A stretch of DNA of 59,640 bases from contig JAEEML010000144.1 of the NCBI GenBank assembly GCA_016283195.1, forward strand, positions 1 through 59,640, read 5' to 3'. Source of the stretch: Deltaproteobacteria bacterium. Its GTDB lineage: Bacteria > JAEEML01. Position numbers and translations under genes: made by a program. This document shows, piece by piece, positions 29,954 through 59,640 of the stretch. The notes beneath the pieces were generated by a model. That model saw nothing but the letters and a program-made list of their open reading frames with translations. It was not told the DNA's origin and searched no databases. Within the stretch, counting starts at the first letter, position 1, and the number at the start of each line of letters is the position of its first letter.

Positions 29954-31210
29954 ATGAGCGATAAAATACGAAAGCTAAAAGACGATGCGGCAACCTTAAC
30001 AGCCAAAGGCAAATTCGACAAAGCCATTGAGTTATATAACGAAATTTTGGCCGCCGAGCCCGACGATCTGCAAACTCTTTTAAGAGCCGGTGATGCTTAC
30101 CGCCGTCTGGGCAAAGATACCGAAGCGGTGGAAGCTTATGAAAAGGTGGCCAGAGGTTACGGTAACGACGGCCTCCTCTTAAAAGCTATTGCCGTTTGCA
30201 AAATGATTTTGGAAATCGATGAAGCACACAGCTCCACCCAAGCGCTGCTCGCCGATCTTTATGCCAAGAAGAGCGGCGGCAGAGCCAAACTTAATCTGGT
30301 ACTTGATACCAGTGCCATAGCTGCCGAGAGCCCAGCTCCTTCCGCCGGAGAAGGCGCTGCCCAGGAGAAAGACCTGCCGGTTATCCCGCTCTTTTCCGAT
30401 CTCAGCAAAAACGCCTTTATCCAGCTCATGGAACAAATGACCATGCACACTGTGGCCCCCGGCGCCTATATTATTCGCGAGGGCGAAGTTGGGCACAGCT
30501 TCTTTATTATCTCCCAAGGACGGGTGAAAGTGAGCAAACTCACCGAGTCCGGCGAACAGATGGTTTTGGCTCATTTGGAAGATAATGCCTTTTTCGGCGA
30601 AATGGCTCTTTTAAGCAACTCCCCGCGCAATGCTTCCATCATTGCCGAAGAAGAGACAACCGTCTTTGAAGTTTCCAAAGAAGTGCTGGATAAAGTTTGC
30701 GAAAATTATGTTTCCGTGCGCCATGTGCTCATAAAATTTTATAAACAGCGGCTCCTTTCCAATCTGTTAGCCGTTTCGCCGGTCTTCCGCCCGCTCTCTC
30801 CGGCACAGCGCAAAGATTTAATTGAAAAATTCAAATCGCGCGAGGTACCGGAAGGCACGGTTTTATTGCAACAAGGCGACAAGGGCGACGGCCTCTACCT
30901 CATTCTCTCCGGCGAAGTAAAAGTGGAATGTCAGACAGAGAAGGGCCTTCTTTTACTCAATAAGTTAAAAGATAACGATGTCTTTGGCGAAATTTCTCTC
31001 TTAACCCAGGAGCCGGTTTCCGCCACCATCACCACCACCAAAAATTCCATTATTTTGCGCCTGCCGCGTAAATCATTCACCGAAGTGGCTATGTCTATCC
31101 CGCAGCTTTTGATTCATGTTTCCGAGCTGGCTGAGGAGCGGCGCCGCATTAATGATGCCGTACTGCGCGGGGAAATGGTTTACCGCGACGACGGGCTGGT
31201 GGTTGTCTGA
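29954..31210 (+). CDS. TPR + tandem cyclic-nucleotide-binding domain protein
   Basis: N-terminal TPRs; FFGEMALL..PRNAS and VFGEISLL cNMP motifs. Confidence 0.88.
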   Translation: MSDKIRKLKDDAATLTAKGKFDKAIELYNEILAAEPDDLQTLLRAGDAYRRLGKDTEAVEAYEKVARGYGNDGLLLKAIAVCKMILEIDEAHSSTQALLADLYAKKSGGRAKLNLVLDTSAIAAESPAPSAGEGAAQEKDLPVIPLFSDLSKNAFIQLMEQMTMHTVAPGAYIIREGEVGHSFFIISQGRVKVSKLTESGEQMVLAHLEDNAFFGEMALLSNSPRNASIIAEEETTVFEVSKEVLDKVCENYVSVRHVLIKFYKQRLLSNLLAVSPVFRPLSPAQRKDLIEKFKSREVPEGTVLLQQGDKGDGLYLILSGEVKVECQTEKGLLLLNKLKDNDVFGEISLLTQEPVSATITTTKNSIILRLPRKSFTEVAMSIPQLLIHVSELAEERRRINDAVLRGEMVYRDDGLVVV

Positions 31211-31214
31211 TTCC

Positions 31215-33023
31215 ATGAAATTGCCCACAAAAGCATACGAATTTAATCACATTTTTATTTTGGATATGCTGGAAGAGGCCGGGCGTATAACCCCGGAACA
31301 GCGGCGCCATGTGGAAGTTTACGCTCTCCAGCAACGGGCCCGCCTTTTAAAGGAGATGTTTGGCTCGGCTCAGGCAGCCAGTGAGGCTCGTTACCAAATC
31401 TCGCCGCTTGAACTTTTAGCCTCCTTTAACCTGGCAGATCATAACGAAGTGCCGATTAATGAGGAGTATTTGGCCCGCCTTTTGGCTAAGACTGCCGGTC
31501 TGCCTTTTTTGCGCATTGATCCGCTAAAACTCGACAGCGCTCTTATCACCGGCACTTTTTCACGCCCTTTTGCCACCCGCAATACCATTCTGCCTCTTTC
31601 CCGCAGTGATGATGGCATAACTTTGGCACTGGAAAACCCTTTTGACCAGGAGCTAAAGGAGCATCTCACCCGCCTTTTGGGCACCAATTTGCATTATGTG
31701 GTGGCGCCCAAAAGCGATATTATAAAATCCATCGCCGAGGTTTACGGCTTTAAACATTCGGTGCAGGCAGCGGCAAAAGATCAGGATTTTCATGATGATG
31801 CCGGCCAGATGGTGCAAAATTTCGAGCAGCTCATCAACCTTAAGCAAGCCGAGCAAATAGAAGCCAACGACAAGCACATTGTCAATGCCGTTGATTTTAT
31901 GCTCAATTATGCCTACGATCAGCGGGCTTCGGATATTCACATTGAGCCCAGGCGCGGGGATTCGCAAATCCGCCTTAGAATTGACGGCGTATTGCACGAT
32001 ACGCAAAAATTTCCCAAAAGTGTGCACCCCGCTTTTGTTTCGCGCATAAAAAACATGGCCCGCCTGGATATAGCCGAAAAAAGGCGGCCGCAGGATGGGC
32101 GCATTAAAACCAAGATGGGCAACCGCGAAACTGAGCTGCGCGTTTCCACCATGCCGGTGGCTTTTGGCGAAAAGGTGGTTATCCGCATTTTTGACCCGGA
32201 TGTTCTCGTAAAGGGGCTGCCTGATCTCGGTTTTTACCCCGAAGAGCTCAGTACTTTTAACGATTGGATTCAAAATCCCAACGGCATTATCCTCATCACC
32301 GGCCCTACGGGGAGCGGCAAAACCACCACTCTTTACACCACTTTAAATCACCTTTCGAGCCCCGATATCAATGTGATAACAGTGGAAGACCCCATTGAAA
32401 TGGTGGTGGACAGCTTTAATCAGGTGGCCGTGCAAACTAAAATCGGTGTTACTTTTGCCGCCGCTCTGCGCACTATTTTGCGCCAGGATCCCGATATCAT
32501 TATGATTGGCGAAATCCGCGACAAAGAGACAGCCGAGATGGCTATTCAAGCCGCCTTAACCGGCCATTTAGTCTTTTCCACCCTGCACACCAACGACACG
32601 GCCGGTGCCGTCTCGCGCCTTTTGGAACTGGGGATAGAACCATTTTTATTAAAAAGCACTTTAAGGGGTATTATGGCTCAGCGCCTCTTGCGCAAAATCT
32701 GCCCCAATTGCCGCGAAGAGATTTTTTTAAGTGAAGATCAGGCGGAAACACTGGGCCTTGAAAGTTCTCAGCCCATTAAAGTTTCTCACGGCGCCGGCTG
32801 CAGCGCCTGCCGCTTTACCGGTTTTAAAGGGCGCATCAGCGTTTTTGAGCTCATGACTATTTCTGCCCCCATTCAGCTGCTCATTAAAGAGGGCGCCGAT
32901 GCTAGACGCATTGAAGAAACAGCAACAAATTTGGGTATGCGCCATTTGCGCGATGCGGCGGTGCAAAAATTACTGGACGGTGAAACCTCTTTTGAAGAGG
33001 TCATTCGGGTGATGGGGCTTTAG
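31215..33023 (+). CDS. GspE/PilB-family secretion/pilus assembly ATPase
   Basis: ASDIHIEP, GPTGSGKTTT, TVEDPIE, LRQDPDIIMIGEIRD, Zn-binding CPNC/CSAC. Confidence 0.93.
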   Translation: MKLPTKAYEFNHIFILDMLEEAGRITPEQRRHVEVYALQQRARLLKEMFGSAQAASEARYQISPLELLASFNLADHNEVPINEEYLARLLAKTAGLPFLRIDPLKLDSALITGTFSRPFATRNTILPLSRSDDGITLALENPFDQELKEHLTRLLGTNLHYVVAPKSDIIKSIAEVYGFKHSVQAAAKDQDFHDDAGQMVQNFEQLINLKQAEQIEANDKHIVNAVDFMLNYAYDQRASDIHIEPRRGDSQIRLRIDGVLHDTQKFPKSVHPAFVSRIKNMARLDIAEKRRPQDGRIKTKMGNRETELRVSTMPVAFGEKVVIRIFDPDVLVKGLPDLGFYPEELSTFNDWIQNPNGIILITGPTGSGKTTTLYTTLNHLSSPDINVITVEDPIEMVVDSFNQVAVQTKIGVTFAAALRTILRQDPDIIMIGEIRDKETAEMAIQAALTGHLVFSTLHTNDTAGAVSRLLELGIEPFLLKSTLRGIMAQRLLRKICPNCREEIFLSEDQAETLGLESSQPIKVSHGAGCSACRFTGFKGRISVFELMTISAPIQLLIKEGADARRIEETATNLGMRHLRDAAVQKLLDGETSFEEVIRVMGL

Positions 33024-33045: not shown

Positions 33046-33975
33046 TCACAGAGAGTCCTTAAGACAACGTACAGAAAATCCGCCACCTCTATTGGTAACA
33101 GGCACAAAAGCACCGCCAGAAACGAGAACCAGGCTGTACATATAGTAAGTATCGCCCTGCTCCGTAGCAGACCAGAAGTAAGCACCGTAACCGAAATTAT
33201 GAAAAACGTCATCGGTGCCCCAAAGACCTGCCGGCAAAGCACCAAAAGCTGTGCTGTTAGTAACCAGATCTTGGTAATCATGTATCCACTCCGAATCTTT
33301 AGCTACTAAAGCGAGGAAAGCCGGATTTGGTTTTTCATTATTATCATTGGTTCCAACTACACTCAAAAGGCTCTCAAATTCTGCTTTACTTGGTAAATGC
33401 CAGCCAGCTGGGCATACTTTCAAGGCATCTTCCAATGAATAAATACAACCATATTTTTCTACAAAATCGGTATCAGCATCAGTATTAGCATAACAGGTAA
33501 GCGACGCACCTTCACGGCCAAAAGTGCCAGCCATATTTTTGGCCGACCATATCTGATCACCAATAGTGACAGTTTCTAAAGCCAATGTATCACAGTTTTT
33601 TCCGGAAAAACCGGCCTGGCAGTGTGAACATGTGCCATCCTCTTGTTTGGGAATACCACCACCATTTACACATGTTGGCGTTTTATCGCAATTCGGGCCC
33701 CAATAATTAGCCGTACATTTTGAGCAGGTTCCATCCTCTTGAATACCATCTTTGCAAATGCCATTTACACAAGTGCAAGGCTTGCACTCCGGCCCAAAAT
33801 AACCACTTTTACAATAAGCCAGCTGTTCAGATGTCCCGTCTTTGTTATTTTGGCCGTCTTTACTATTTTGGCCATCTTTACCATTCTGCTCTTGTGGCCC
33901 CTGTTCTCCGGCGCCTCCACAGGCAGCAAAGAGTAAACATAAGGCTATACCACTAACCATTCCTAATTTTTGCAT
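33046..33975 (-). CDS. FISUMP (Fib_succ_major) lipoprotein with EGF-like repeats
   Basis: FAAC lipobox; degenerate collagen-like GQNxKD repeats; EGF Cys pattern; IGDQIWSAKN, CPAGWHLPS, FWSAT, FSVRCLKD. Confidence 0.9.
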   Translation of the reverse strand: MQKLGMVSGIALCLLFAACGGAGEQGPQEQNGKDGQNSKDGQNNKDGTSEQLAYCKSGYFGPECKPCTCVNGICKDGIQEDGTCSKCTANYWGPNCDKTPTCVNGGGIPKQEDGTCSHCQAGFSGKNCDTLALETVTIGDQIWSAKNMAGTFGREGASLTCYANTDADTDFVEKYGCIYSLEDALKVCPAGWHLPSKAEFESLLSVVGTNDNNEKPNPAFLALVAKDSEWIHDYQDLVTNSTAFGALPAGLWGTDDVFHNFGYGAYFWSATEQGDTYYMYSLVLVSGGAFVPVTNRGGGFSVRCLKDSL

Positions 33976-34046
33976 AAAAAATCCTCCGCGTATAGGCACA
34001 TAAAACACCAATTTTGGTGCCTTGTTCTTTCTTTTATATCGCTGCG

Positions 34047-51880: not shown

Positions 51881-53069
51881 CGGTAATTCCTTGGGCCCAG
51901 TTTTTGGCCAAAACCGAAAGAGCTTCCCGCTCATTAAGATCTGGATTTTCCCAGACTTTTTCTAAAAGATAGCGGCGGAGCTCACCCAGCGCCGGGCCGG
52001 CTTTTAAAGCGCATAATTCCATTAAATCATTACTTTTTATAGCCAAATTTTTGTCATTATAGAGCGGCTCGCTTTGGTAGCGCTCTGCCAATGTCCGGAG
52101 GCTTTCCGGCCCGCGAAAAAGCGCTAAATAATCGGGTATTAAAGAGTAATTTTGGGCTATAAATTCCCGCTCGGTGGCTATACCCTGCGGCGGCGCGGCG
52201 CGTAAAATATGCCAAAGAGCTATTAAATGATTGCGCTCTTTAGCCGGCAAAACCAGGCGCTCCGCTAAAGATTTTGGCTCCTGCGGCAAATAGCTAAAAA
52301 GATGGCCAAGGCGCAGGGTGCGCTCCAAGGGAAGCCCGGCCAGACCATTTAGGCACTCCTCCCAAGCGGAAATAGCCGTAAGCTCCGGCCAAAGGAGCTC
52401 AATAAGCCCTATTTTTTTAAATAAATTTAGGGCCTTTGTCGCCTGTGGAGCCGTTAAAACAAGGCAAAATTCCTGGGCAGTGCGCTCTTTGCTGAGCCCG
52501 GCGGTTAAGGGCGCCAGTTTTTGCATGGCTTTATATGTTTCCGGCACAATTTCAAAACCCAGCTTAGCCATAAAACGGGCGGCGCGCAAAATCCGCAAAG
52601 CATCTTCCTTAAAGCGCTCTTCCGCCTGACCAACTGTGCGAATCAGCTGCGCTTTTAAATCCGGCTGCCCGCCGAACGGGTCGCAAAGCGGCCCGGATGG
52701 CAACTTATAAGCTATGGCATTTATTGTAAAATCACGCCGTGCCAGGTCGTCTTCAATCTTGCTGATAAAATTCACTGCCTCCGGGCGGCGCCCATCTTTA
52801 TAAGCGCCGTCGGCCCGCAAGGTGGTTATCTCATATTGGCCGCCGGGCATAATAATGGTCACTGTGCCGTGCTTGATGCCTGTTGGAATAACTTTTTCAA
52901 ATATTTCTACTACTTTTGCCGGCTTAGCCGTGGTTGCCAAATCGTAATCATGGGCCGGGATAGCCATGAGCCTATCGCGCAGAGCACCGCCCACCAGGTA
53001 ACACTCCTCACCGGCCAGAGCCAGCTTTTGGGCAATAGTACGTAAATCGGCCGGTAAAGTTAAATCCAT
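51870..53069 (-). CDS. cca: tRNA nucleotidyltransferase (CCA-adding family)
   Basis: VGGALRD, DYDLAT, DLARRDFTINA, EDALRILRAARF. Confidence 0.9.
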   Translation of the reverse strand: MDLTLPADLRTIAQKLALAGEECYLVGGALRDRLMAIPAHDYDLATTAKPAKVVEIFEKVIPTGIKHGTVTIIMPGGQYEITTLRADGAYKDGRRPEAVNFISKIEDDLARRDFTINAIAYKLPSGPLCDPFGGQPDLKAQLIRTVGQAEERFKEDALRILRAARFMAKLGFEIVPETYKAMQKLAPLTAGLSKERTAQEFCLVLTAPQATKALNLFKKIGLIELLWPELTAISAWEECLNGLAGLPLERTLRLGHLFSYLPQEPKSLAERLVLPAKERNHLIALWHILRAAPPQGIATEREFIAQNYSLIPDYLALFRGPESLRTLAERYQSEPLYNDKNLAIKSNDLMELCALKAGPALGELRRYLLEKVWENPDLNEREALSVLAKNWAQGITDES

Positions 53070-53078
53070 AAATACTCG

Positions 53079-54899
53079 CTATTCCGCTTTTACGGCATTT
53101 AATTTGTTTTCCAGCTCTTCCCAGCGGGCATAGAGGGCATCCACCACCTTTTGCGCTTCCTCCACCTTGGCGGCGGCGGCCGTGAGTTTAGCGGCACTAG
53201 TGCTGATAGCCGGGTCATTAAGCTCTTCATTACAGCGGCTGAGTTCGGCTTCAGCGGCTTCTATCTTGCCCTCAAGAGCCCGGTATTCGAGTTCTTCGCT
53301 ATAGGTTAGAGCTTTTTTATTAACCTTTTTGCTTTGGGCCGGAGCCGCCTGGGCCTTCTTGGGCGCCTCATTTTGCTCGCGCATCCAAGCCATATATTGG
53401 GCAAAATCGGCACAAATAATAGCACTACCCCGATTATTCAGGCCAATAATAAGGTCGCAAATATTTTCCAAAAGAGCCCGGTCGTGGGTAACAATCAGCG
53501 CCGCCCCGGGGAAAGAGGCCAGGCTTTCTTCCAAAATGTCGATAGTAGCAATATCGAGGTCATTAGTGGGCTCATCGAGGAGCATGAGGTCGGCTTCGCG
53601 CAGCATCAGGCGGGCAATAAGCACCCGCGCCTGTTCACCGCCGGAGAGGTTATCAAGGCGCATCTCCAGTTGCTCCGGCCTAAACAAAAAGCGCTCGGCC
53701 CAACCGGCCACATGGATGGGTTTTCCCTGATAAATAACGCTGTCTCCGCTTTCGGTTAAAGCCTTTTTTAGCGAAAGTTTTTTATCCAGCTGTTCACGTT
53801 TTTGGTCAAAATAGACTATTTTTAAATTATCGGCCTTAACTATTTCGCCGCCCGTGGCGCTGAGTTCTCCGGCCAAAACTTTAAGCAGCGAGGATTTACC
53901 GCTGCCGTTGGGGCCGACAAGGCCGATGATGAGACCATTTTGAATCACAAAACTTAAATCTTTAAAAAGATCCCGCTCGCCTCTATTAAGCGCTAAATCG
54001 CGGGCCACCACAAGGCGCTTGGTTTTGCGTCCGCTGGCTGTAAAAGTGAGCTCAAGTTTAGTATTTTGACCAAGATTTTTCAGCGCTTTTAGCTCTTCCA
54101 GCATAGCTTTGGCGTTATTTACTCTGGCCGCGGCTTTGGTGCTTCTGGCCGGGGCGCCGTGATGCAGCCATTCGTTTTCCCGGCGAGCTTTACTGGCCAG
54201 GCCGCTTTGGTACTGGGCCTGCGCTTTGAAAAAAGCCTCTTTTTGGGCCAGAAACTCCCGGTAGTTGCCTTTAGCGGTAAAGTAGCCGGCCGGATAGTGG
54301 TAATCTATTTCCCAAATAACGTTGGCCACATTTTGCAAAAAGGCCCGATCATGGGTGATAGTGATTACCGCCAGCGGCGCAGAGGCCACAAAAGACTCCA
54401 GCCAGAGAATACTCTCTAAATCAAGATGGTTGGTGGGCTCATCCAAAAGGAGAATATCGGGGCTAATAACCAGGGCCGCCGCCAAAGAGAGGCGGCGCTG
54501 CCAGCCGCCGGAGAGAGTTTCGGCTAAAACATCGCGCTTATTAAAGCCTAAAAGCGCCGCTGTTTTGGCAATAGCTGCCTCTTTTTGCGCTTCGTCGGTG
54601 GGTAATTTGGCAAAAGCTGCATCAAATGAAGCAGCTAAAATATCATAGACACTTTGGCCGGGGGCAAAATCTGGGCGCTGCGGCACATAAGCGAGGCGCG
54701 CGCCCTGTTTTAAGGCTATTTCGCCTTCGTCATGGCTCTCCAGGCCGGCCATAATTTTTAATAAAGTGCTTTTACCGCTGCCGTTGGGGCCGATGAGGCC
54801 AATTTTATCGCCACTATTTACATGAAGCGTGAGATCGTGAAAGAGATCGCGCGCGCCGTAAGCTTTGCCGATATTCATAATACTTAATAAAGTGGCCAT
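53079..54899 (-). CDS. uup: ABC-F ATPase, Uup-like
   Basis: Two ABC domains (GPNGSGKS, LSGG, LDEPTN), no TM, C-terminal coiled coil ending YARWEELE. Confidence 0.88.
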   Translation of the reverse strand: MATLLSIMNIGKAYGARDLFHDLTLHVNSGDKIGLIGPNGSGKSTLLKIMAGLESHDEGEIALKQGARLAYVPQRPDFAPGQSVYDILAASFDAAFAKLPTDEAQKEAAIAKTAALLGFNKRDVLAETLSGGWQRRLSLAAALVISPDILLLDEPTNHLDLESILWLESFVASAPLAVITITHDRAFLQNVANVIWEIDYHYPAGYFTAKGNYREFLAQKEAFFKAQAQYQSGLASKARRENEWLHHGAPARSTKAAARVNNAKAMLEELKALKNLGQNTKLELTFTASGRKTKRLVVARDLALNRGERDLFKDLSFVIQNGLIIGLVGPNGSGKSSLLKVLAGELSATGGEIVKADNLKIVYFDQKREQLDKKLSLKKALTESGDSVIYQGKPIHVAGWAERFLFRPEQLEMRLDNLSGGEQARVLIARLMLREADLMLLDEPTNDLDIATIDILEESLASFPGAALIVTHDRALLENICDLIIGLNNRGSAIICADFAQYMAWMREQNEAPKKAQAAPAQSKKVNKKALTYSEELEYRALEGKIEAAEAELSRCNEELNDPAISTSAAKLTAAAAKVEEAQKVVDALYARWEELENKLNAVKAE

Positions 54900-55037
54900 C
54901 TATTCTCCTCCCAAGCCGGGATTTTGCCGACTCTTTATGGCAGAAAAAGATGATTTTGGAAAGAGCCAGTCTACGGTAAAAGCTGCAGATTTTCAACCAA
55001 GGAATAGCGCCCGCCGCAGGCGGGCGGATCGCGCTGA

Positions 55038-55126
55038 TTTTTCAAAATTTTACAGGGTACCCTGTATATTAGGTATTGAAAATACCTAAACCATTTTTCC
55101 GTGCCTATTGGCACAAGGAGTGCAGT
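55038..55126 (+). repeat. FISUMP leader repeat, copy 1 (89 nt, three dyads plus SD)
   Basis: TACAGGGTACCCTGTA; TAGGTATT-GAA-AATACCTA; GTGCC-N4-GGCAC; AAGGAG; two differences from copies 2 and 3. Confidence 0.95.
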
Positions 55127-56068
55127 ATGAAAAAGTGTAAAGTCTTAGTTTCAGCAATGTTAACTCTCGCCCTCACGGCCTGCGGCGGTGCCGGTGAACA
55201 AGGGCCGGAAGGCAAGCAAGGCCCGCAAGGACTCAAAGGTGATGCCGGGAGCGACGGCCAACCGGGCAGCGATGGTGAAGGCTGTTATGTAGTGAAAAAA
55301 GATGCCGACCACGGCATTGTTATTTGCCCGGCCGATGGCTCATCATACGTTATCTACAGCCCGGAAAACTTGCCCAAAGCCAATGGTTTACCTAATGGCA
55401 ACGGCGGCTATCTTTACTGCAATGCCGGTTATTTTGGAGAAAGTTGCACCGCCTGCACCTGTGAGCGCGGCACTTGCAACGATGGCCTAAACGGAAGTGG
55501 TGAATGTTCTTGCTCCAGAGGTTACACCGGCAAAGATTGTTCCGTACTTGCCCTTGGTTACATGGCCGACACCAACGGCACCGCTTACAAAACAACCATA
55601 ATCGGCGAACAAATCTGGATGGCTGAAAATATGGCCAGCGATACAGCAACCGACGGCAGCTCAATCACTTGCTATGCCAATACCGACGCTGATCCGGATT
55701 TTGTGGAACATTATGGCTGCCTCTATAATTGGGAAGATGCCATGAAAGTTTGCCCTAAGGGCTGGCATTTACCAACACAGACCAATTTTGATGGCTTGCT
55801 AAATATTGCCGGCGATAACGCCCAAAACAAAACAGATAATCTGCGTTCCGCAACTTGGCTAAATGGCAATGACAGTCTTGGCTTTAATGCTCTTCCTGCC
55901 GGAGACAAGCTCAGTACCAATTACCTTCATTTTGGTACCGGTGCTCGCTTTTGGTCAGCCACAGGCAATACTACCCTCGCCTTCTACTTGGGGCTCGGTC
56001 CTAACAATGCTTATATGGACAGAACCGGCGTGGAAGCTGCTTTCTCCGTGCGCTGCATAAAAGACTAA
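55127..56068 (+). CDS. Collagen-EGF-FISUMP lipoprotein, array member 1
   Basis: LTAC lipobox; Gly-X-Y repeats; EGF; IGEQIWMAEN, CPKGWHLP, FWSAT, FSVRCIKD. Confidence 0.92.
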   Translation: MKKCKVLVSAMLTLALTACGGAGEQGPEGKQGPQGLKGDAGSDGQPGSDGEGCYVVKKDADHGIVICPADGSSYVIYSPENLPKANGLPNGNGGYLYCNAGYFGESCTACTCERGTCNDGLNGSGECSCSRGYTGKDCSVLALGYMADTNGTAYKTTIIGEQIWMAENMASDTATDGSSITCYANTDADPDFVEHYGCLYNWEDAMKVCPKGWHLPTQTNFDGLLNIAGDNAQNKTDNLRSATWLNGNDSLGFNALPAGDKLSTNYLHFGTGARFWSATGNTTLAFYLGLGPNNAYMDRTGVEAAFSVRCIKD

Positions 56069-56084
56069 ATGCGCGTCTCTCTCA

Positions 56085-57335
56085 TTAATCAAGCAGACTT
56101 TTATCCAGCAAAAAGTTAATAATTCCAATTTGTTCTATGCCGTTTTCATCCCGCCGGAGTTTTATATTGTCGCGCGTGATAATGAGCTTTTTAAAACTAT
56201 CACCAATAATATTCAAAGGTCTTTTTTCCTGCCGGCTCTTGGCCTCCGTCTCTAAATAGAGCGCTGACTGAATATAATATTTTTGGCTCCCTTTACTGGC
56301 GATGAAGTCAATCTCCAGCTGCTTTTTGATAGTTTTGCCATTAGCCCCTTTGTCAAAAGTCTCTATAACTCCAACATCCACCGAAAAGCCGCGCGCTAAA
56401 AGTTCATTATATATAATATTTTCCATGAGATGGCTTTCTTCCGTCTGGCGAAAGTTAAGCCGGGCATTACGCAAACCAACATCTGCCAAATAATATTTGG
56501 CCGTGGCAGCTATATATCTCTTGCCCTTAATATCATAGCGCGACGCCTTTGAAAGCATGAAGGCATCCTCAAAGTAGCCGATATAATTCTTGATGGTGTG
56601 ATCGCTAATAGTCTTTTGTTTAACACTCTTAAAAGTTTTTGAAAGTTTTAGGGGATTAGTAAGCGAACCAACAGCAGATGACAAAATATCCAATAATTCA
56701 TCAAGTTCTACACTGTTGCGCACTTTGTGACGCTCAAGAATATCGGCCACATATACCTCTTTAAAGAGATTTTTGAGATACGCCGCTTTTTCTTCAACCT
56801 CAGTCAGGCTAAGGACATAGGGCATACCTCCGTAATTCAGATAATCATCGAAAGCTTCATCCTTAGAACCGGAATATACCGAAGAATATTCTGCAAAACT
56901 AAGGGGATAAACCCTTATCTCATCGCCCCTTCCACGAAACTCGGTGATAATATCGGAGGAGAGGAACTTGGAATTACTGCCGCTTACATAAACATCAACA
57001 TTCGCCAGATGCAAAAAGCCGTTAAGCGCCTCTTCAAAATTTTGTATAAATTGAATTTCATCGAGGAGCAAAAAATAATCGGAGGAATCTTTAAGCAAAC
57101 TGCTTACATGATTATAAAGGCTCTCGGCTGAGCGCAATGGTTTATTCCGAATATCATCAAGAGCTATTCTGATTATGTGGTCGGCCGCTATGCCGCTTTC
57201 CAGCAAATAGTTATAAAAAATGGTGTTCAAAAGATAGGACTTACCGCAGCGCCGTATGCCGGTTATAATTTTGATCAGCCCATTTTTTTGTTTACGAATA
57301 AGCTTTTGAAGATATATGTCACGCTTAATCTGCAT
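56085..57335 (-). CDS. AAA_14/DUF4143-type ATP-binding protein
   Basis: GIRRCGKS Walker A, LLDEIQ Walker B, SGSNS, KYYLADVGLRN, EIDF.....YYIQ. Confidence 0.9.
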   Translation of the reverse strand: MQIKRDIYLQKLIRKQKNGLIKIITGIRRCGKSYLLNTIFYNYLLESGIAADHIIRIALDDIRNKPLRSAESLYNHVSSLLKDSSDYFLLLDEIQFIQNFEEALNGFLHLANVDVYVSGSNSKFLSSDIITEFRGRGDEIRVYPLSFAEYSSVYSGSKDEAFDDYLNYGGMPYVLSLTEVEEKAAYLKNLFKEVYVADILERHKVRNSVELDELLDILSSAVGSLTNPLKLSKTFKSVKQKTISDHTIKNYIGYFEDAFMLSKASRYDIKGKRYIAATAKYYLADVGLRNARLNFRQTEESHLMENIIYNELLARGFSVDVGVIETFDKGANGKTIKKQLEIDFIASKGSQKYYIQSALYLETEAKSRQEKRPLNIIGDSFKKLIITRDNIKLRRDENGIEQIGIINFLLDKSLLD

Positions 57336-57346
57336 TTACTCTTCCC

Positions 57347-57456
57347 ATTGCGAATATTGGTGGAAATCCACCTTTTTTCGCAATAACTATAGTATTTCGG
57401 AGCAGAGGACAATCATTTATTGCGAATTTTGGTAAAAAAACACCTTTTTTCGCGAT
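57347..57456. promoter_or_regulatory. Pair of 38-nt palindromic direct repeats upstream of the AAA ATPase (57347-57384, 57419-57456)
   Basis: ATTGCGAA...GGT...ACC...TTCGC(A/G)AT; 32/38 identical; 34-nt gap contains TATAGT. Confidence 0.7.
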
Positions 57457-57522
57457 TACCATTTTCAAAAGATCCGCGCGGTTTAGAGGAGAAATTGCCG
57501 CCGCAAGCGGCGATCGCGCCAG

Positions 57523-57611
57523 TTTTTCAAAATTTTACAGGGTACCCTGTATATTAGGTATTGAAAATACCTAAACCATTTTTCCGTGCCCATTGGCACA
57601 AGGAGCGCAGT
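57523..57611 (+). repeat. FISUMP leader repeat, copy 2
   Basis: Identical to copy 3 over 89 nt. Confidence 0.95.
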
Positions 57612-58592
57612 ATGAAAAAGTGTAAAGTCTTAGTCTCAGTAGTGTTAACTCTAGCCCTAGCTGCCTGCGGCAGCGCCGGTGAGCAGGGGCCAGCTGGCCC
57701 AGAGGGCAAGCAAGGCCCGCAAGGACTCAAAGGCGATGCCGGCAGCGACGGCCAGCCGGGCAGCGATGGCGAAGGCTGCTATGTGGTGAAAAAAGATGCC
57801 GATCACGGCATAGTTATCTGTCCGGCAGATGGCTCTTCGTATGTCATCTATAGCCCGGAAAACTTGCCTAAATCCAATGGTTTACCTAATGGCCAGGGCG
57901 GCTATCTTTACTGCAATGCCGGCTACTTTGGAGAAAATTGCGCTGCTTGCACCTGTGAGCACGGCACTTGCAACGACGGCCTAAATGGAAGTGGTGAATG
58001 CACCTGTGCAGCCGGATATATCGGCAAAAACTGCGACATAGAAAACCTTCTAAAGTACAACAGCAAAATATATAAAGTGGTGCAAATTGGCGAGCAAATC
58101 TGGATGGCCGAAAATATGGCTACTGATACAGCCACAGATGGCAGCGCTGTGACTTGCTATGCCAATACCAACGCCGACCCGGTTTTTGTGGAAAATTACG
58201 GCTGCTTATATACTTGGGCTGATGCTATGAAGATTTGTCCCACCGGTTGGCGTTTACCGGAAAAAAGCGACTTCGATGACTTATTAACCTATGTGGAAAA
58301 TAATCGCACTAGCAGTAGCAACTTCTTGGCCCTTATAGCTAAAAGCACTGCTTGGACTGGGCACCAAAACCAAGGTGGTGATGACTTTGCTTTTTCTGCG
58401 CTACCAGCCGGTCGCAGGGGCGTCGATGGCAATTACAGCCTTTTTGGCACACTCACCGGTTTCTGGTCGGCTACATATAATGCTATCGGCACCGCCAACA
58501 CCCTGAGCATCAGTAGCAATAATAGCCCTACCGCCATTACAGGCACGACCGACAAAAGTCTCGCCTATTCCGTCCGCTGCGTGAAACAATAA
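57612..58592 (+). CDS. Collagen-EGF-FISUMP lipoprotein, array member 2
   Basis: N-terminal half nearly identical to member 1; divergent FISUMP C-terminus ending YSVRCVKQ. Confidence 0.92.
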   Translation: MKKCKVLVSVVLTLALAACGSAGEQGPAGPEGKQGPQGLKGDAGSDGQPGSDGEGCYVVKKDADHGIVICPADGSSYVIYSPENLPKSNGLPNGQGGYLYCNAGYFGENCAACTCEHGTCNDGLNGSGECTCAAGYIGKNCDIENLLKYNSKIYKVVQIGEQIWMAENMATDTATDGSAVTCYANTNADPVFVENYGCLYTWADAMKICPTGWRLPEKSDFDDLLTYVENNRTSSSNFLALIAKSTAWTGHQNQGGDDFAFSALPAGRRGVDGNYSLFGTLTGFWSATYNAIGTANTLSISSNNSPTAITGTTDKSLAYSVRCVKQ

Positions 58593-58610
58593 CCGAATAG
58601 AGCCCAAAAA

Positions 58611-58988
58611 CTATGGGCGAAATACCTCTACTGGCAAATCAGGTATCAACTTATAATGCTTATTGTTAGCGGTACAAAGCCTTTGGCCATACTGCACACA
58701 AGTCGCAGCAATCAGGGCATCGCCCATCTCCAGTGAATTCACCAGGAAAAAGCTTTCGACATAACTCAGCGCTTTTGCAGAAATTATCTCGTTCAGTTGA
58801 ATTATTTCAACATCAAGTTTTTTAAGCATTTTCTTAAAAATAGCCAGTTCCTGCTTATTTTTCATACCCTGCACAAGTTCCATATAGGTAACGGCGGAAA
58901 TACTAAAAGGAGCCTCAGCAAGAACTTTGCTCCTAGCATTTTCATTACCACGCAAAAACCAGATAAGCACATCAGTATCAAATATCAA
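58611..58988 (-). CDS. vapC: VapC-family PIN toxin
   Basis: IFDTDVLI, TYMEL, DALIAAT, TANNKHY. Confidence 0.9.
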   Translation of the reverse strand: MIFDTDVLIWFLRGNENARSKVLAEAPFSISAVTYMELVQGMKNKQELAIFKKMLKKLDVEIIQLNEIISAKALSYVESFFLVNSLEMGDALIAATCVQYGQRLCTANNKHYKLIPDLPVEVFRP

Positions 58989-59235
58989 AATGGCGCCCCC
59001 GACGCAGTGTTCGCGCGTATTCTTCTACATTTTCCGCTTCATTATGACTTTTCCAAAGTCCAAATGCCTCTTCTGTGTCGTCATCTGTATATTTTTTTAC
59101 TTTACTTTCAACTGGTGCTGCCCGGCGAAATGAATCAAGAAATGTAATAATAACTTCTTTTCCATTAAAAGAAGGAGGCAAAAAATCATCAGCCACAATA
59201 TTGCCGCCATTTACATATCCTTTTACTGCCAACAT
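58978..59235 (-). CDS. Putative antitoxin of the VapC toxin
   Basis: Small ORF overlapping the vapC start; AFGLWK...YARTLRRGR C-terminus; GGAGG SD. Confidence 0.78.
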   Translation of the reverse strand: MLAVKGYVNGGNIVADDFLPPSFNGKEVIITFLDSFRRAAPVESKVKKYTDDDTEEAFGLWKSHNEAENVEEYARTLRRGRHFDI

Positions 59236-59407
59236 TTTCGCACCTCCCACTCTACTCACTATAGCACACCTAGCCATATTGCGCTAGCGGCTCGGGGGCA
59301 AGGTAAAGACTCCGGCAATTTTACATCAATTTCCGCAAATTCGGCAGCCACGATGCCCTCCTCTTTTCTCCTTCACCCCACAAATATTTAATAATTACAG
59401 CATGTTC

Positions 59408-59482
59408 CCCCTCTCCATTTGTAAAAAATGGAGAGGGGTGCCGCGAAGCGGCGGGGTGAGGGCCGCCGCAGGCGGCTCGCGC
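59408..59482 (+). repeat. REP-like palindromic element
   Basis: 13-bp stem CCCCTCTCCATTT/AAATGGAGAGGGG, GCCGC-GAA-GCGGC hairpin, GGGGTGAGGG, CGCCGCAGGCGG. Confidence 0.75.
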
Positions 59483-59485
59483 CTA

Positions 59486-59574
59486 TTTTTCAAAATTTTA
59501 CAGGGTACCCTGTATATTAGGTATTGAAAATACCTAAACCATTTTTCCGTGCCCATTGGCACAAGGAGCGCAGT
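59486..59574 (+). repeat. FISUMP leader repeat, copy 3
   Basis: Same 89-nt leader. Confidence 0.95.
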
Positions 59575-59640
59575 ATGAAGAAGTGTAAAGTTTTAGTCTC
59601 AGTAGTGTTAACTCTCGCCCTCACGGCCTGCGGCGGCGCC
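59575..59640 (+). CDS. Array member 3, 5' end only (runs off window)
   Basis: MKKCKVLVSVVLTLALTACGGA. Confidence 0.88.
   Translation, partial: MKKCKVLVSVVLTLALTACGGA

Follow-up and report, generated by a model that had tools for sequence, protein, structure and literature searches.

A probably recombining family of collectin-like FISUMP lipoproteins with a common leader and defence-type genes at its 3′ ends in a draft Deltaproteobacteria genome

The window analyzed here is the whole of contig C3 (59,640 nt), one of the 190 contigs of a 3.22-Mb draft metagenome-assembled genome (MAG) of a Deltaproteobacteria bacterium (completeness 100, contamination 4.18%). Its right-hand end carries an array of units that each begin with a leader and a gene for a lipoprotein with a FISUMP domain. 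With a probability of about 60%, we read the array as part of a recombining family of collectin-like lectin lipoproteins that have a selected leader in common and whose 3′ slots collect Rpn-family, toxin–antitoxin (TA) and defence modules, and not as an integron-like system. Throughout, C plus a number denotes a contig of the draft genome and L plus a number an extra contig found by the leader search; C3a and C3b are the genes of units a and b of the window, and C48e is the gene at the end of contig C48.

The units are marked by a 173-nt direct repeat with three copies in the window, at 55020, 57505 and 59468 (100, 89 and 93% identity); find_repeats, the source of these positions and identities, returned longer two-copy families besides. 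BLAST moved the repeat starts to 55007, 57498 and 59463, which lie 23–31 nt upstream of those given in a preliminary description of this DNA, and its account of three units with a leader, a variable tip and a gene on the opposite strand was upheld. Units a and b are 81.5% identical over 773 nt (55011–55773 versus 57498–58258) and then 47% identical over the last ~290 nt. The gene of unit a (55127–56068, + strand) encodes 313 amino acids (aa) with a variable tip at ~55776–56047, and that of unit b (57612–58592, +) a 326-aa paralogue with its tip at 58085–58580; both were assigned with Pfam and NCBIfam, the former also with an AlphaFold2 model. Unit c is represented by its first 22 codons (MKKCKVLVSVVLTLALTACGGA; 59575–59640, +), as the contig, and with it the visible part of the array, ends inside it. 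The opposite-strand genes, for an AAA_14+DUF4143 ATPase in unit a (56085–57335, −) and a PIN-domain, VapC-like putative toxin in unit b (58611–58988, −), converge on the FISUMP genes with stop-to-stop gaps of 16 and 18 nt, in line with the ~20 nt stated previously.

Mosaic gene copies and the gene-end boundary

Leader and N-terminal block recur on C49 and C138 (two copies each), C48, C111, C62, C7 (both ends), C87 and C46, and ten more leader loci were found on L044, L045, L047, L049, L050, L057, L059, L062, L066 and L079. The genome has 114 matches to PF09603, or 117 domains by our own iterated profile, and at least five arrays by count of open ends. Housekeeping genes adjoining the copies are that for an ABC-F protein in the window and ispG, glyS, recA/tfoX, gidB, ispE and wzy elsewhere. 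A search with the 561-nt leader and N-terminal DNA gave no match in 40 other genomes, among which the only kin are of the same domain. The IspG protein of the draft genome has relatives at 86, 74 and 72% identity, with named taxa at 54% or less, and the flanking ABC-F protein matched 15 loci on contigs of other genomes, all at 46% identity or less. The family is thus far best described as a dispersed, lineage-specific multigene family, of which the window holds one end of one array.

Variation is concentrated in the last ~100 residues, 3′ of a CPxGWxLP motif, and a closing SVRC[LI]KD is kept. The median synonymous distance (dS) along the gene is 0.57, 0.66, 1.03 and 1.12 and reaches saturation in the tip (5 of 10 pairs not computable); the N-terminal nonsynonymous distance (dN) is 0.03–0.05, that of the tip 0.73. 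The nearest neighbour of a copy switches along the gene. Over 55127–55300, C3a groups with C49a (93%) and C3b with C7s (95%); over 55301–55480, C3a groups with C7e (94%) and C3b with C138a (94%); over 55481–55620, C7e and C48e are 100% identical; and in the tip C48e is closest to C3b (84%) and C7e to nothing above 52%. Tandem neighbours are not closest kin, with C3a 81.5% identical to C3b versus 87.1% to C138a and 86.3% to C48b. A test of the pairwise homoplasy index (PHI) type on 87 informative sites (55007–55775, five genes) gave 0.39 versus 0.535 after permutation, with 0 of 2,000 permutations as low, and the outcome was the same for the 42 sites of the N-terminal coding part. The mosaic similarity and this test bear out the suggestion of the preliminary description that the units code for probably ligand-binding surface proteins of a family in which recombination takes place.

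Old tandem and dispersed duplications could account for the copies without any ongoing shuffling, if the tips diverged by mutation and selection and TA and defence genes came to lie nearby through the flexible genome. Such a history accords with the N-terminal dS of ~0.6, with the saturated dS of the tips and with the finding that a tip is at least as close to unrelated FISUMP genes as to other members of the family (35–55% aa identity). We nevertheless consider it unlikely, given the significant homoplasy signal, the switching of nearest neighbours and the identity of C7e and C48e in one segment next to only 48% in their tips. It would also have to accommodate the 97%-identical cargo joined to unrelated FISUMP bodies described next, which requires relatively recent exchange.

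Tips and their 3′ neighbours are combined in different ways. L047 and C48 are 97.2% identical over 535 nt, from 24 nt before the FISUMP stop through the DUF2442/DUF4160 genes, and show no relationship in their FISUMP bodies. C3b and C48e have tips with 87.5% nucleotide identity as far as 12 nt from the stop; VapBC comes next in the one and DUF2442/DUF4160 in the other. The VapBC genes of L050 and C138 are 91% identical over 692 nt; those of L050 follow a full FISUMP gene, those of C138 an 83-nt remnant of the leader. These mismatched pairs therefore place the breakpoint at the conserved gene end, and at the other side homology always starts at the G+C hairpin of the leader. L066 retains a PIN gene that has been lost from C49, beside 96.8%-identical sequence. 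To judge from these sequences, the comparisons show that tips and neighbouring defence genes reassort at fixed gene-end boundaries; the shuffling proposed earlier finds support in one tip with different cargo and in 97%-identical cargo with unrelated tips.

By our reading, copies exchange by homology, with a conserved 5′ stretch of ~770 nt and the conserved last ~24 nt (SVRC[LI]KD to stop) as anchors, and the variable lectin tip can thereby be swapped independently of the gene 3′ of it. Neisseria pilE/pilS, Borrelia vls and Treponema tprK are surface-protein families diversified by recombination between copies, and they likewise combine conserved 5′ parts or flanks with variable exposed segments and mosaic copies. 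Truncated copies that could act as donors, as in families of the pilE/pilS type, are C49b (C49:4478–5046) and L050b (L050:2975–3110), in which leader and lectin core are joined directly at a short microhomology of the CAAGGA type, and a deletion derivative on L066 (17–583), in which the lectin C-part directly follows the collagen tract. Unlike those systems, the family described here lacks a single expression site (the promoter motif is present in 12 copies), its copies are old and it has no near-identical silent donor. A silent-donor model was accordingly rejected, as no tip has a near-identical donor beyond the pairs C3b/C48e (83% aa identity) and L057/C7e (84%). Programmed variation at a single expression site is ruled out by the 12 promoter-bearing copies together with this lack of near-identical donors, and we know of no programmed mechanism for this family.

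Predicted lectin-fold lipoproteins and their leader

Both complete genes start at the ATG of MKKC(KVLVS...) and encode a lipoprotein-type signal with the sequence LTAC or LAAC, which we take to be a lipobox by its consensus. Pfam and NCBIfam matches were judged against the curated cut-offs (gathering scores). The two proteins matched PF09603 with 96.5 and 99.1 bits (cut-off 33.9) and TIGR02145 with 121.1 and 129 bits (cut-off 41.65); Pfam matches to collagen (Gly-X-Y, ~10 triplets) and to a Cys-rich EGF-like module were below the gathering cut-offs. The order of parts in the unit a protein is signal peptide and lipobox, Gly-X-Y tract, small beta domain, EGF-like module and FISUMP domain. An AlphaFold2 model built from a 59-row alignment had a mean predicted local distance difference test (pLDDT) score of 83.5, with values above 92 for residues 100–313.

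A Foldseek search of the Protein Data Bank (PDB) with this model returned nothing at E ≤ 0.001. VIA-align of residues 141–313 with 48,161 chains gave the variable protein TvpA of Treponema denticola as the best match (Z 10.2, root mean square deviation (rmsd) 3.4, 145 aligned residues), followed by InvE (9.6), PvdO (9.3), the C-terminal domain of Lcl (8q4e; 8.8, rmsd 2.4, 96 aligned), TaqVP (8.2) and Mtd (7.6). Beyond TvpA, more than 40 entries with a C-type-lectin-like domain (CTLD) scored at Z 6–9, with dozens of C-type lectin domains at 6–7. By this modelling, the FISUMP head is a C-type-lectin fold of the type found in variable proteins of diversity-generating retroelements (DGRs), formylglycine-generating enzymes (FGEs) and invasins. 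The DGR variable proteins TvpA, Mtd and TaqVP have the same fold of the C-type-lectin/FGE type and likewise carry their variability in the C-terminal, ligand-binding part.

The same part order, with a signal, a Gly-X-Y tract and a C-terminal head of lectin fold, is found in Lcl of Legionella pneumophila and in animal collectins. Matches of the window proteins to Pfam Lcl_C and NCBIfam adhesin_Lcl were weak (NF046116, 16.2 and 19.2 bits versus the 500 needed, over the collagen tract only). The window proteins differ from Lcl and collectins in having only ~10 triplets, a lipobox anchor and an extra EGF-like module, and their head belongs to PF09603, not PF07603. With a lipid anchor, a short collagen-like stalk, an EGF-like module and a head modelled as a lectin fold, the proteins thus resemble collectins and Lcl in predicted architecture. 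Few surface proteins of gut and rumen bacteria are as expanded and as poorly understood as FISUMP proteins, and this family presents them as collectin-like lipoproteins with a hypervariable binding half. The FISUMP domain is reported from the envelope proteome of F. succinogenes (PMC4619616), and in 'Candidatus Ornithobacterium hominis' it is reported to form a set of accessory genes that varies (PMC6421346). The passages covered by a limited search of the FISUMP literature contain no description of arrays in which such genes alternate with TA or defence genes.

The leader of each unit opens with a G+C-rich hairpin that forms the sharp 5′ edge of unit a (55008–55026, +), where the homology of all copies starts and a terminator scan finds the stem; matching edges lie at 57497–57511 in unit b and ~59470–59484 in unit c. 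Leader b, with hairpin, promoter-like site, palindrome and 5′ leader, spans 57498–57611 (+) and leader c 59463–59574 (+). A sigma-70-like promoter, TTCAAA-18 nt-TATATT, is predicted at 55041–55070 (+; promoter scan, 9 of 12 matches), with copies in the same place of the other units at 57526–57555 and 59489–59518. A perfect 16-nt palindrome, TACAGGGTACCCTGTA (55051–55066), sits in the promoter spacer. The 5′ leader of unit a (55070–55120, +), delimited by the alignment of 23 leaders, contains the hairpin TAGGTATT-GAA-AATACCTA at 55070–55088, the hairpin GTGCC-TATT-GGCAC at 55101–55114 and the Shine–Dalgarno sequence AAGGAG at 55115–55120. Over the 23 leaders the order is constant: G+C hairpin, T-run, promoter-like site with palindrome, hairpin, second hairpin and AAGGAG. 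In the stem of the G+C hairpin, 91.7% of cells pair. In 20 leaders the palindrome is centred on GTAC and in three on CTAG, a symmetrical change, and one pair of the first 5′-leader hairpin, between the promoter and the second hairpin, covaries (A-U in 11, C-G in 11, no mismatch). An Rfam scan of 54800–59640 with E up to 1 gave no family match.

Among the five full-length genes, the leader has a median Jukes–Cantor (JC) distance of 0.080 and its core of promoter, palindrome and hairpin one of 0.037, and the dS of the adjoining 52 codons has a median of 0.57 (range 0.14–1.28). The leader is thus ~7 times better conserved than neutral sites nearby, which argues for purifying selection and not for a homogenized recombination repeat. 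The earlier view of the leader as a mere recombination repeat does not fit these distances (JC 0.08 versus dS ~0.6) or the presence of a promoter-like leader in each unit. The conservation instead points to a selected promoter, operator and 5′ untranslated region (UTR); the palindrome is a probable candidate operator, and the copies are probably co-regulated through the shared leader. A compact promoter with a palindrome common to the family could lead to its regulator.

The motif TACAG-N6-CTGTA[CT]ATTAG occurs at 15 sites in the genome, all at these loci. Twelve head members of the lectin-lipoprotein subfamily (one N-terminally deleted), one is the 83-nt leader remnant and two head other Cys-rich lipoproteins. 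The core of promoter, palindrome and hairpin, with a CTAG centre, also heads DUF7107/EB-module and EGF+FISUMP lipoprotein genes at C82:37318–37379, C88:17276–17321 and C109:33828–33948. Solo elements of ~67 nt have at their end the G+C hairpin and T-run of the leader, without its palindrome or promoter (C48:4455–4520, C46:2874–2940, C168:2226–2291, C184:523–573 and C187:2529–2593); two of the five sit at the far end of cargo blocks.

Genes in the 3′ slots

The ATPase of unit a matched Pfam AAA_14 (1.1e-30) and DUF4143 (4.2e-19) and, over residues 2–412, positions 10–409 of the 412-position PADLOC profile PDLC04787 (PDC-S01; E 1.1e-118). It is one of five PDC-S01 paralogues with 47–52% aa identity, three of which, itself included, lie within 400 nt of a FISUMP domain. 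By their PADLOC matches, PDC-S01 and PDC-S13 are candidate defence systems. The putative toxin of unit b matched Pfam PIN with 46.5 bits (6.7e-12; cut-off 23.6) and the NCBIfam VapC equivalogs below their cut-off (41.1 versus 80). A 99-aa open reading frame (ORF) in the VapB position (58978–59277, −) overlaps the vapC start by 11 nt and is a putative antitoxin; it has 39% aa identity to the ORF upstream of the C138 PIN gene and no Pfam, NCBIfam or PADLOC match.

Downstream sequence is readable for 15 family genes, and in 11 the next gene is of TA, defence-candidate or Rpn type, convergent in 10 of the 11. These genes are PDC-S01 (C3a and C49a), VapBC (C3b and L050), Rpn (C49b and C138a), DUF2442/DUF4160 (C48e and L047), Bro-N (PDC-S13, E 5.5e-129) with PIN_3 (C48b), PIN with a small ORF (L066) and a co-directional PIN_3 gene (L057). 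A DIP1984-family gene follows C46, a 74-aa ORF with no family follows L044a and housekeeping genes follow C87 and C7e. By this tally, with Pfam and PADLOC, cargo of TA or defence-like type recurs, which bears out the preliminary description for its TA cargo and adds genes that are not TA.

Genes for PIN, PDDEXK_2 and AAA_14 proteins are enriched near FISUMP domains, with 11 of 33 within 1 kb where 2.5 are expected (0 of 2,000 random placements). Outside the family contigs the count is 8 of 29 versus 2.2 expected (P = 0.0015), and the link between FISUMP and TA or defence genes is therefore general in this organism and not special to the window array, a breadth that duplication without shuffling would also predict. 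A convergent junction elsewhere in the window, where an EGF-like+FISUMP gene (33046–34011, −) meets a type II/IV secretion ATPase gene (31116–33023, +), a housekeeping gene, across a gap of 22 nt, likewise suits duplication without shuffling; defence cargo is therefore not the only kind of neighbour that lies so close in convergent orientation.

By sequence comparison, Rpn-family genes and scars are the most constant partner of the units, one that the preliminary description overlooked. In the window, a degenerate Rpn-family (PDDEXK_2) nuclease gene remnant with a dispersed repeat occupies 59315–59462 (−). Positions 59316–59366 read KEEGIVAAEFAEIDVKL, the C-terminal tail of the Rpn family (blastx, 14 of 17 residues, E 3e-4, one subject), and the rest is a dispersed short repeat with a hairpin (CCCTCTCC...GGAGAGGG) that accompanies Rpn remnants on more than 10 contigs, including C179, C125, C184 and C164. 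A gene truncated at the end of C49 and at the start of C138 encodes an Rpn-family PD-(D/E)XK nuclease, whose full-length relative of 336 aa at L050:66–1076 matched TIGR01784 with 76.1 bits (cut-off 52.1) and PF12784 with 118 bits. Rpn genes or scars are convergent behind C49b, C138a, C48b and C87 and divergent before the leaders of L050, C111, C48b and L045. Six genes have a conserved 3′ flank that consists of a terminator-like hairpin and then an Rpn 3′ end. The Rpn-like gene of L050 has five tetrapeptide repeats, GMEK; tetrapeptide-type repeats are mentioned for Rpn proteins in PMC10400941, where Rpn proteins are also reported as toxic defence nucleases with internal antitoxins.

To judge from the scars, the ancestral unit probably consisted of leader and FISUMP gene, bidirectional terminator hairpin and convergent Rpn-family gene, which is also the simplest history; in many copies the Rpn gene later eroded, or terminator and Rpn gene together gave way to selfish or defence modules abutting the stop codon. 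The outcome in the window is the PDC-S01 ATPase of unit a and, in unit b, VapBC followed by an Rpn scar. That an Rpn nuclease takes part in the exchanges is something we can only infer. In a stronger form of the proposal, the 5′ anchor of leader and N-terminal block and the 3′ anchor of ~24 nt would make up a homology-anchored exchange system in which tips and defence genes are swapped independently within and between genomes and an Rpn nuclease, once the partner of each unit, supplies the breaks. We regard this form as doubtful. If true, variation of surface receptors (host, glycan or phage-receptor specificity) and anti-phage defence would be diversified as linked modules, and, were the Rpn link causal, the diversification of a gene family would be a natural function of Rpn-type nucleases.

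Defence islands and integration hot spots likewise hold the TA and defence-candidate families seen here (PDC-S01, PDC-S13, PIN, DhiT-like and Rpn). In this family, by contrast, defence genes alternate singly with one surface-protein family, bounded by its gene end and leader, and are not clustered between core genes. At C113:305–4617, a PDC-S01 paralogue, a McrBC-type restriction pair and a gene for a FISUMP lipoprotein form a small defence island.

Between the start of the ATPase gene and leader b, the window has two 44-nt direct repeats that are 82% identical (family D6; 57347–57462, +). In each, an 8-bp inverted repeat (ATTGCGAA...TTCGCAAT) flanks a terminator-like hairpin, with a terminator scan match at 57359–57372, and a similar copy at C68:24125–24170 adjoins another FISUMP gene.

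Other mobile systems and the quality of the draft

Integrons and superintegrons with TA cassettes are likewise arrays of short units with variable gene content and TA modules, and TA cassettes reportedly regulate cassette dynamics in chromosomal integrons (PMC13108822). The superintegron analogy drawn in the preliminary description did not hold, and its picture of cassettes that TA genes protect from deletion was not supported. No integron integrase (IntI) was found in the draft, which is incomplete in repeats and has only two PF00589 matches (C3 and C161). As the preliminary description had noted, no integrase adjoins the array; the recombinase of C3 (42407–43351) is ~12 kb away and scored 294 and 272 bits as XerC/XerD and 97.5 as integrase_gron (cut-off 265). 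The stop-to-stop gaps of 16 and 18 nt are too short for an attC of at least 55 nt, as judged by spacing, and the other boundary is the leader. Cassettes of integrons are promoterless and their recombination site is the repeated part; here each unit has its own promoter-like site, the cargo is on the opposite strand, the repeated element is the gene with its leader and the arrays lie at several separate loci. With no IntI in the draft, apparently too little space for attC, own promoters and opposite-strand cargo, an integron is rejected.

Units might still move as true cassettes of another kind, if the unit edges were cut by an Rpn nuclease, or by a tyrosine recombinase with the palindrome or G+C hairpin as its site, and leader, FISUMP gene and cargo were transferred as a module. 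We think this quite unlikely, although the edges are sharp and common, with homology running from the same hairpin in at least 13 copies to the stop codon, and the units occupy many unrelated chromosomal sites. Solo hairpin remnants at array ends (C48:4481–4507 and C46:2886–2919), the symmetrical GTAC-to-CTAG change in the palindrome and Rpn genes or scars beside at least eight family loci (C49, C138, C111, C48, C87, L050, L045 and window 59316–59366) also speak for it, as do E. coli Rpn proteins, which are reported to promote RecA-independent recombination and transfer (PMC5350276). No target-site duplication, terminal inverted repeat or circular junction was seen, however, and the units persist where, as in the window and at several other loci, the Rpn gene is a scar. 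Of only two tyrosine recombinases in the genome, the one checked, on C3, is XerC/D-like; the palindrome lies inside the promoter spacer and is better explained as an operator; and the description of Rpn proteins as toxic defence nucleases (PMC10400941) suits just another cargo.

Diversification of the tips by a DGR has in its favour the best fold match, TvpA, itself a DGR variable protein, the presence of two reverse transcriptase (RT) genes in the genome and a report of FISUMP domains as DGR targets in 43 proteins (PMC11661182). The RT genes (C156:5230–6438 and C172:9809–11149) are both below the NCBIfam cut-offs, with best matches to group II intron RT, Drt2 and Drt3a; FISUMP domains are absent from their contigs, and the 4.7 and 5.5 kb around them contain no direct repeat of at least 50 nt. 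Near the array there is no RT or template repeat, and the tips differ over the whole ~100 aa by segment replacement with indels; they do not show substitutions directed at adenines within a short stretch that matches a template. A DGR was therefore ruled out and is hardly credible as the source of this variation.

Chimeric contigs of mixed strains, produced in assembly or binning, could imitate reassortment, and the 4.18% contamination, the many contig ends that overlap at 87–92% identity and the family copies at contig ends would suit such an artefact. It is very unlikely in view of the three units on one 59.6-kb contig with unique cargo between them and of L049, which has a different accession prefix and, as a separate metagenome assembly, reproduces the order MatE–Wzy–leader–FISUMP and joins C62 to C87. 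The 24-nt conserved gene end is also too short to mislead a k-mer assembler. Public sequencing runs place the organism or near relatives at low depth in animal-gut metagenomes, and short pieces from other such runs match across 52068–58123 with 0 differences over up to 212 nt. Family copies are often at contig ends; such repeats break metagenome assemblies, and arrays of this sort are consequently under-represented in MAGs in a systematic way.

Several points weigh against a recombining family with cargo-collecting 3′ slots. The copies are old (N-terminal dS ~0.6), and much of the pattern could be ancient history and not an active process. The cargo counts are not independent, as L047 and C48e share their cargo and so do L050 and C138. 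At distant FISUMP loci on other contigs the TA/defence link is weak: 25 downstream neighbours, taken from 60 flanking ORFs after near-duplicate loci were dropped, comprise 3 TA/defence-like, 3 FISUMP, 8 housekeeping or other and 11 genes with no family. The promoter, operator and terminator roles are drawn from consensus matches and conservation alone. The bin, in 190 contigs and with 4.18% contamination, may include alleles of a co-binned relative among the apparent paralogues. Many contig ends overlap other contigs at 87–92% identity over 1–3.5 kb, for example C16/C9, C54/C68, C51/C107 and C49/C62 (C49:1–1509 versus C62, 87%), which suggests either that the bin includes a second, related genome or that large stretches are duplicated; with a second genome, some comparisons may be of strain with strain, and reassortment would still be evident but of a different kind. 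The extra contigs L044–L066 have the accession prefix of the bin contigs, except L049 and L066, and may come from other genomes. The read material consists of short, low-depth Logan contigs in which every joint has a short side (≤46 nt, 88% likeness), may stem from a paralogue and is no evidence on circles or deletions.

Two further elements were observed near FISUMP genes. An element of ~400 nt, 91% identical at C48:3994–4398 and C7:25890–26298, lies between the last FISUMP unit and glyS or ispE and may encode a small His/Cys-rich protein. At L062:1873–3246, a gene for a TIR–FISUMP fusion protein adjoins fragments of Transposase_31 (YhgA/Rpn-like) and PDDEXK_2 genes.

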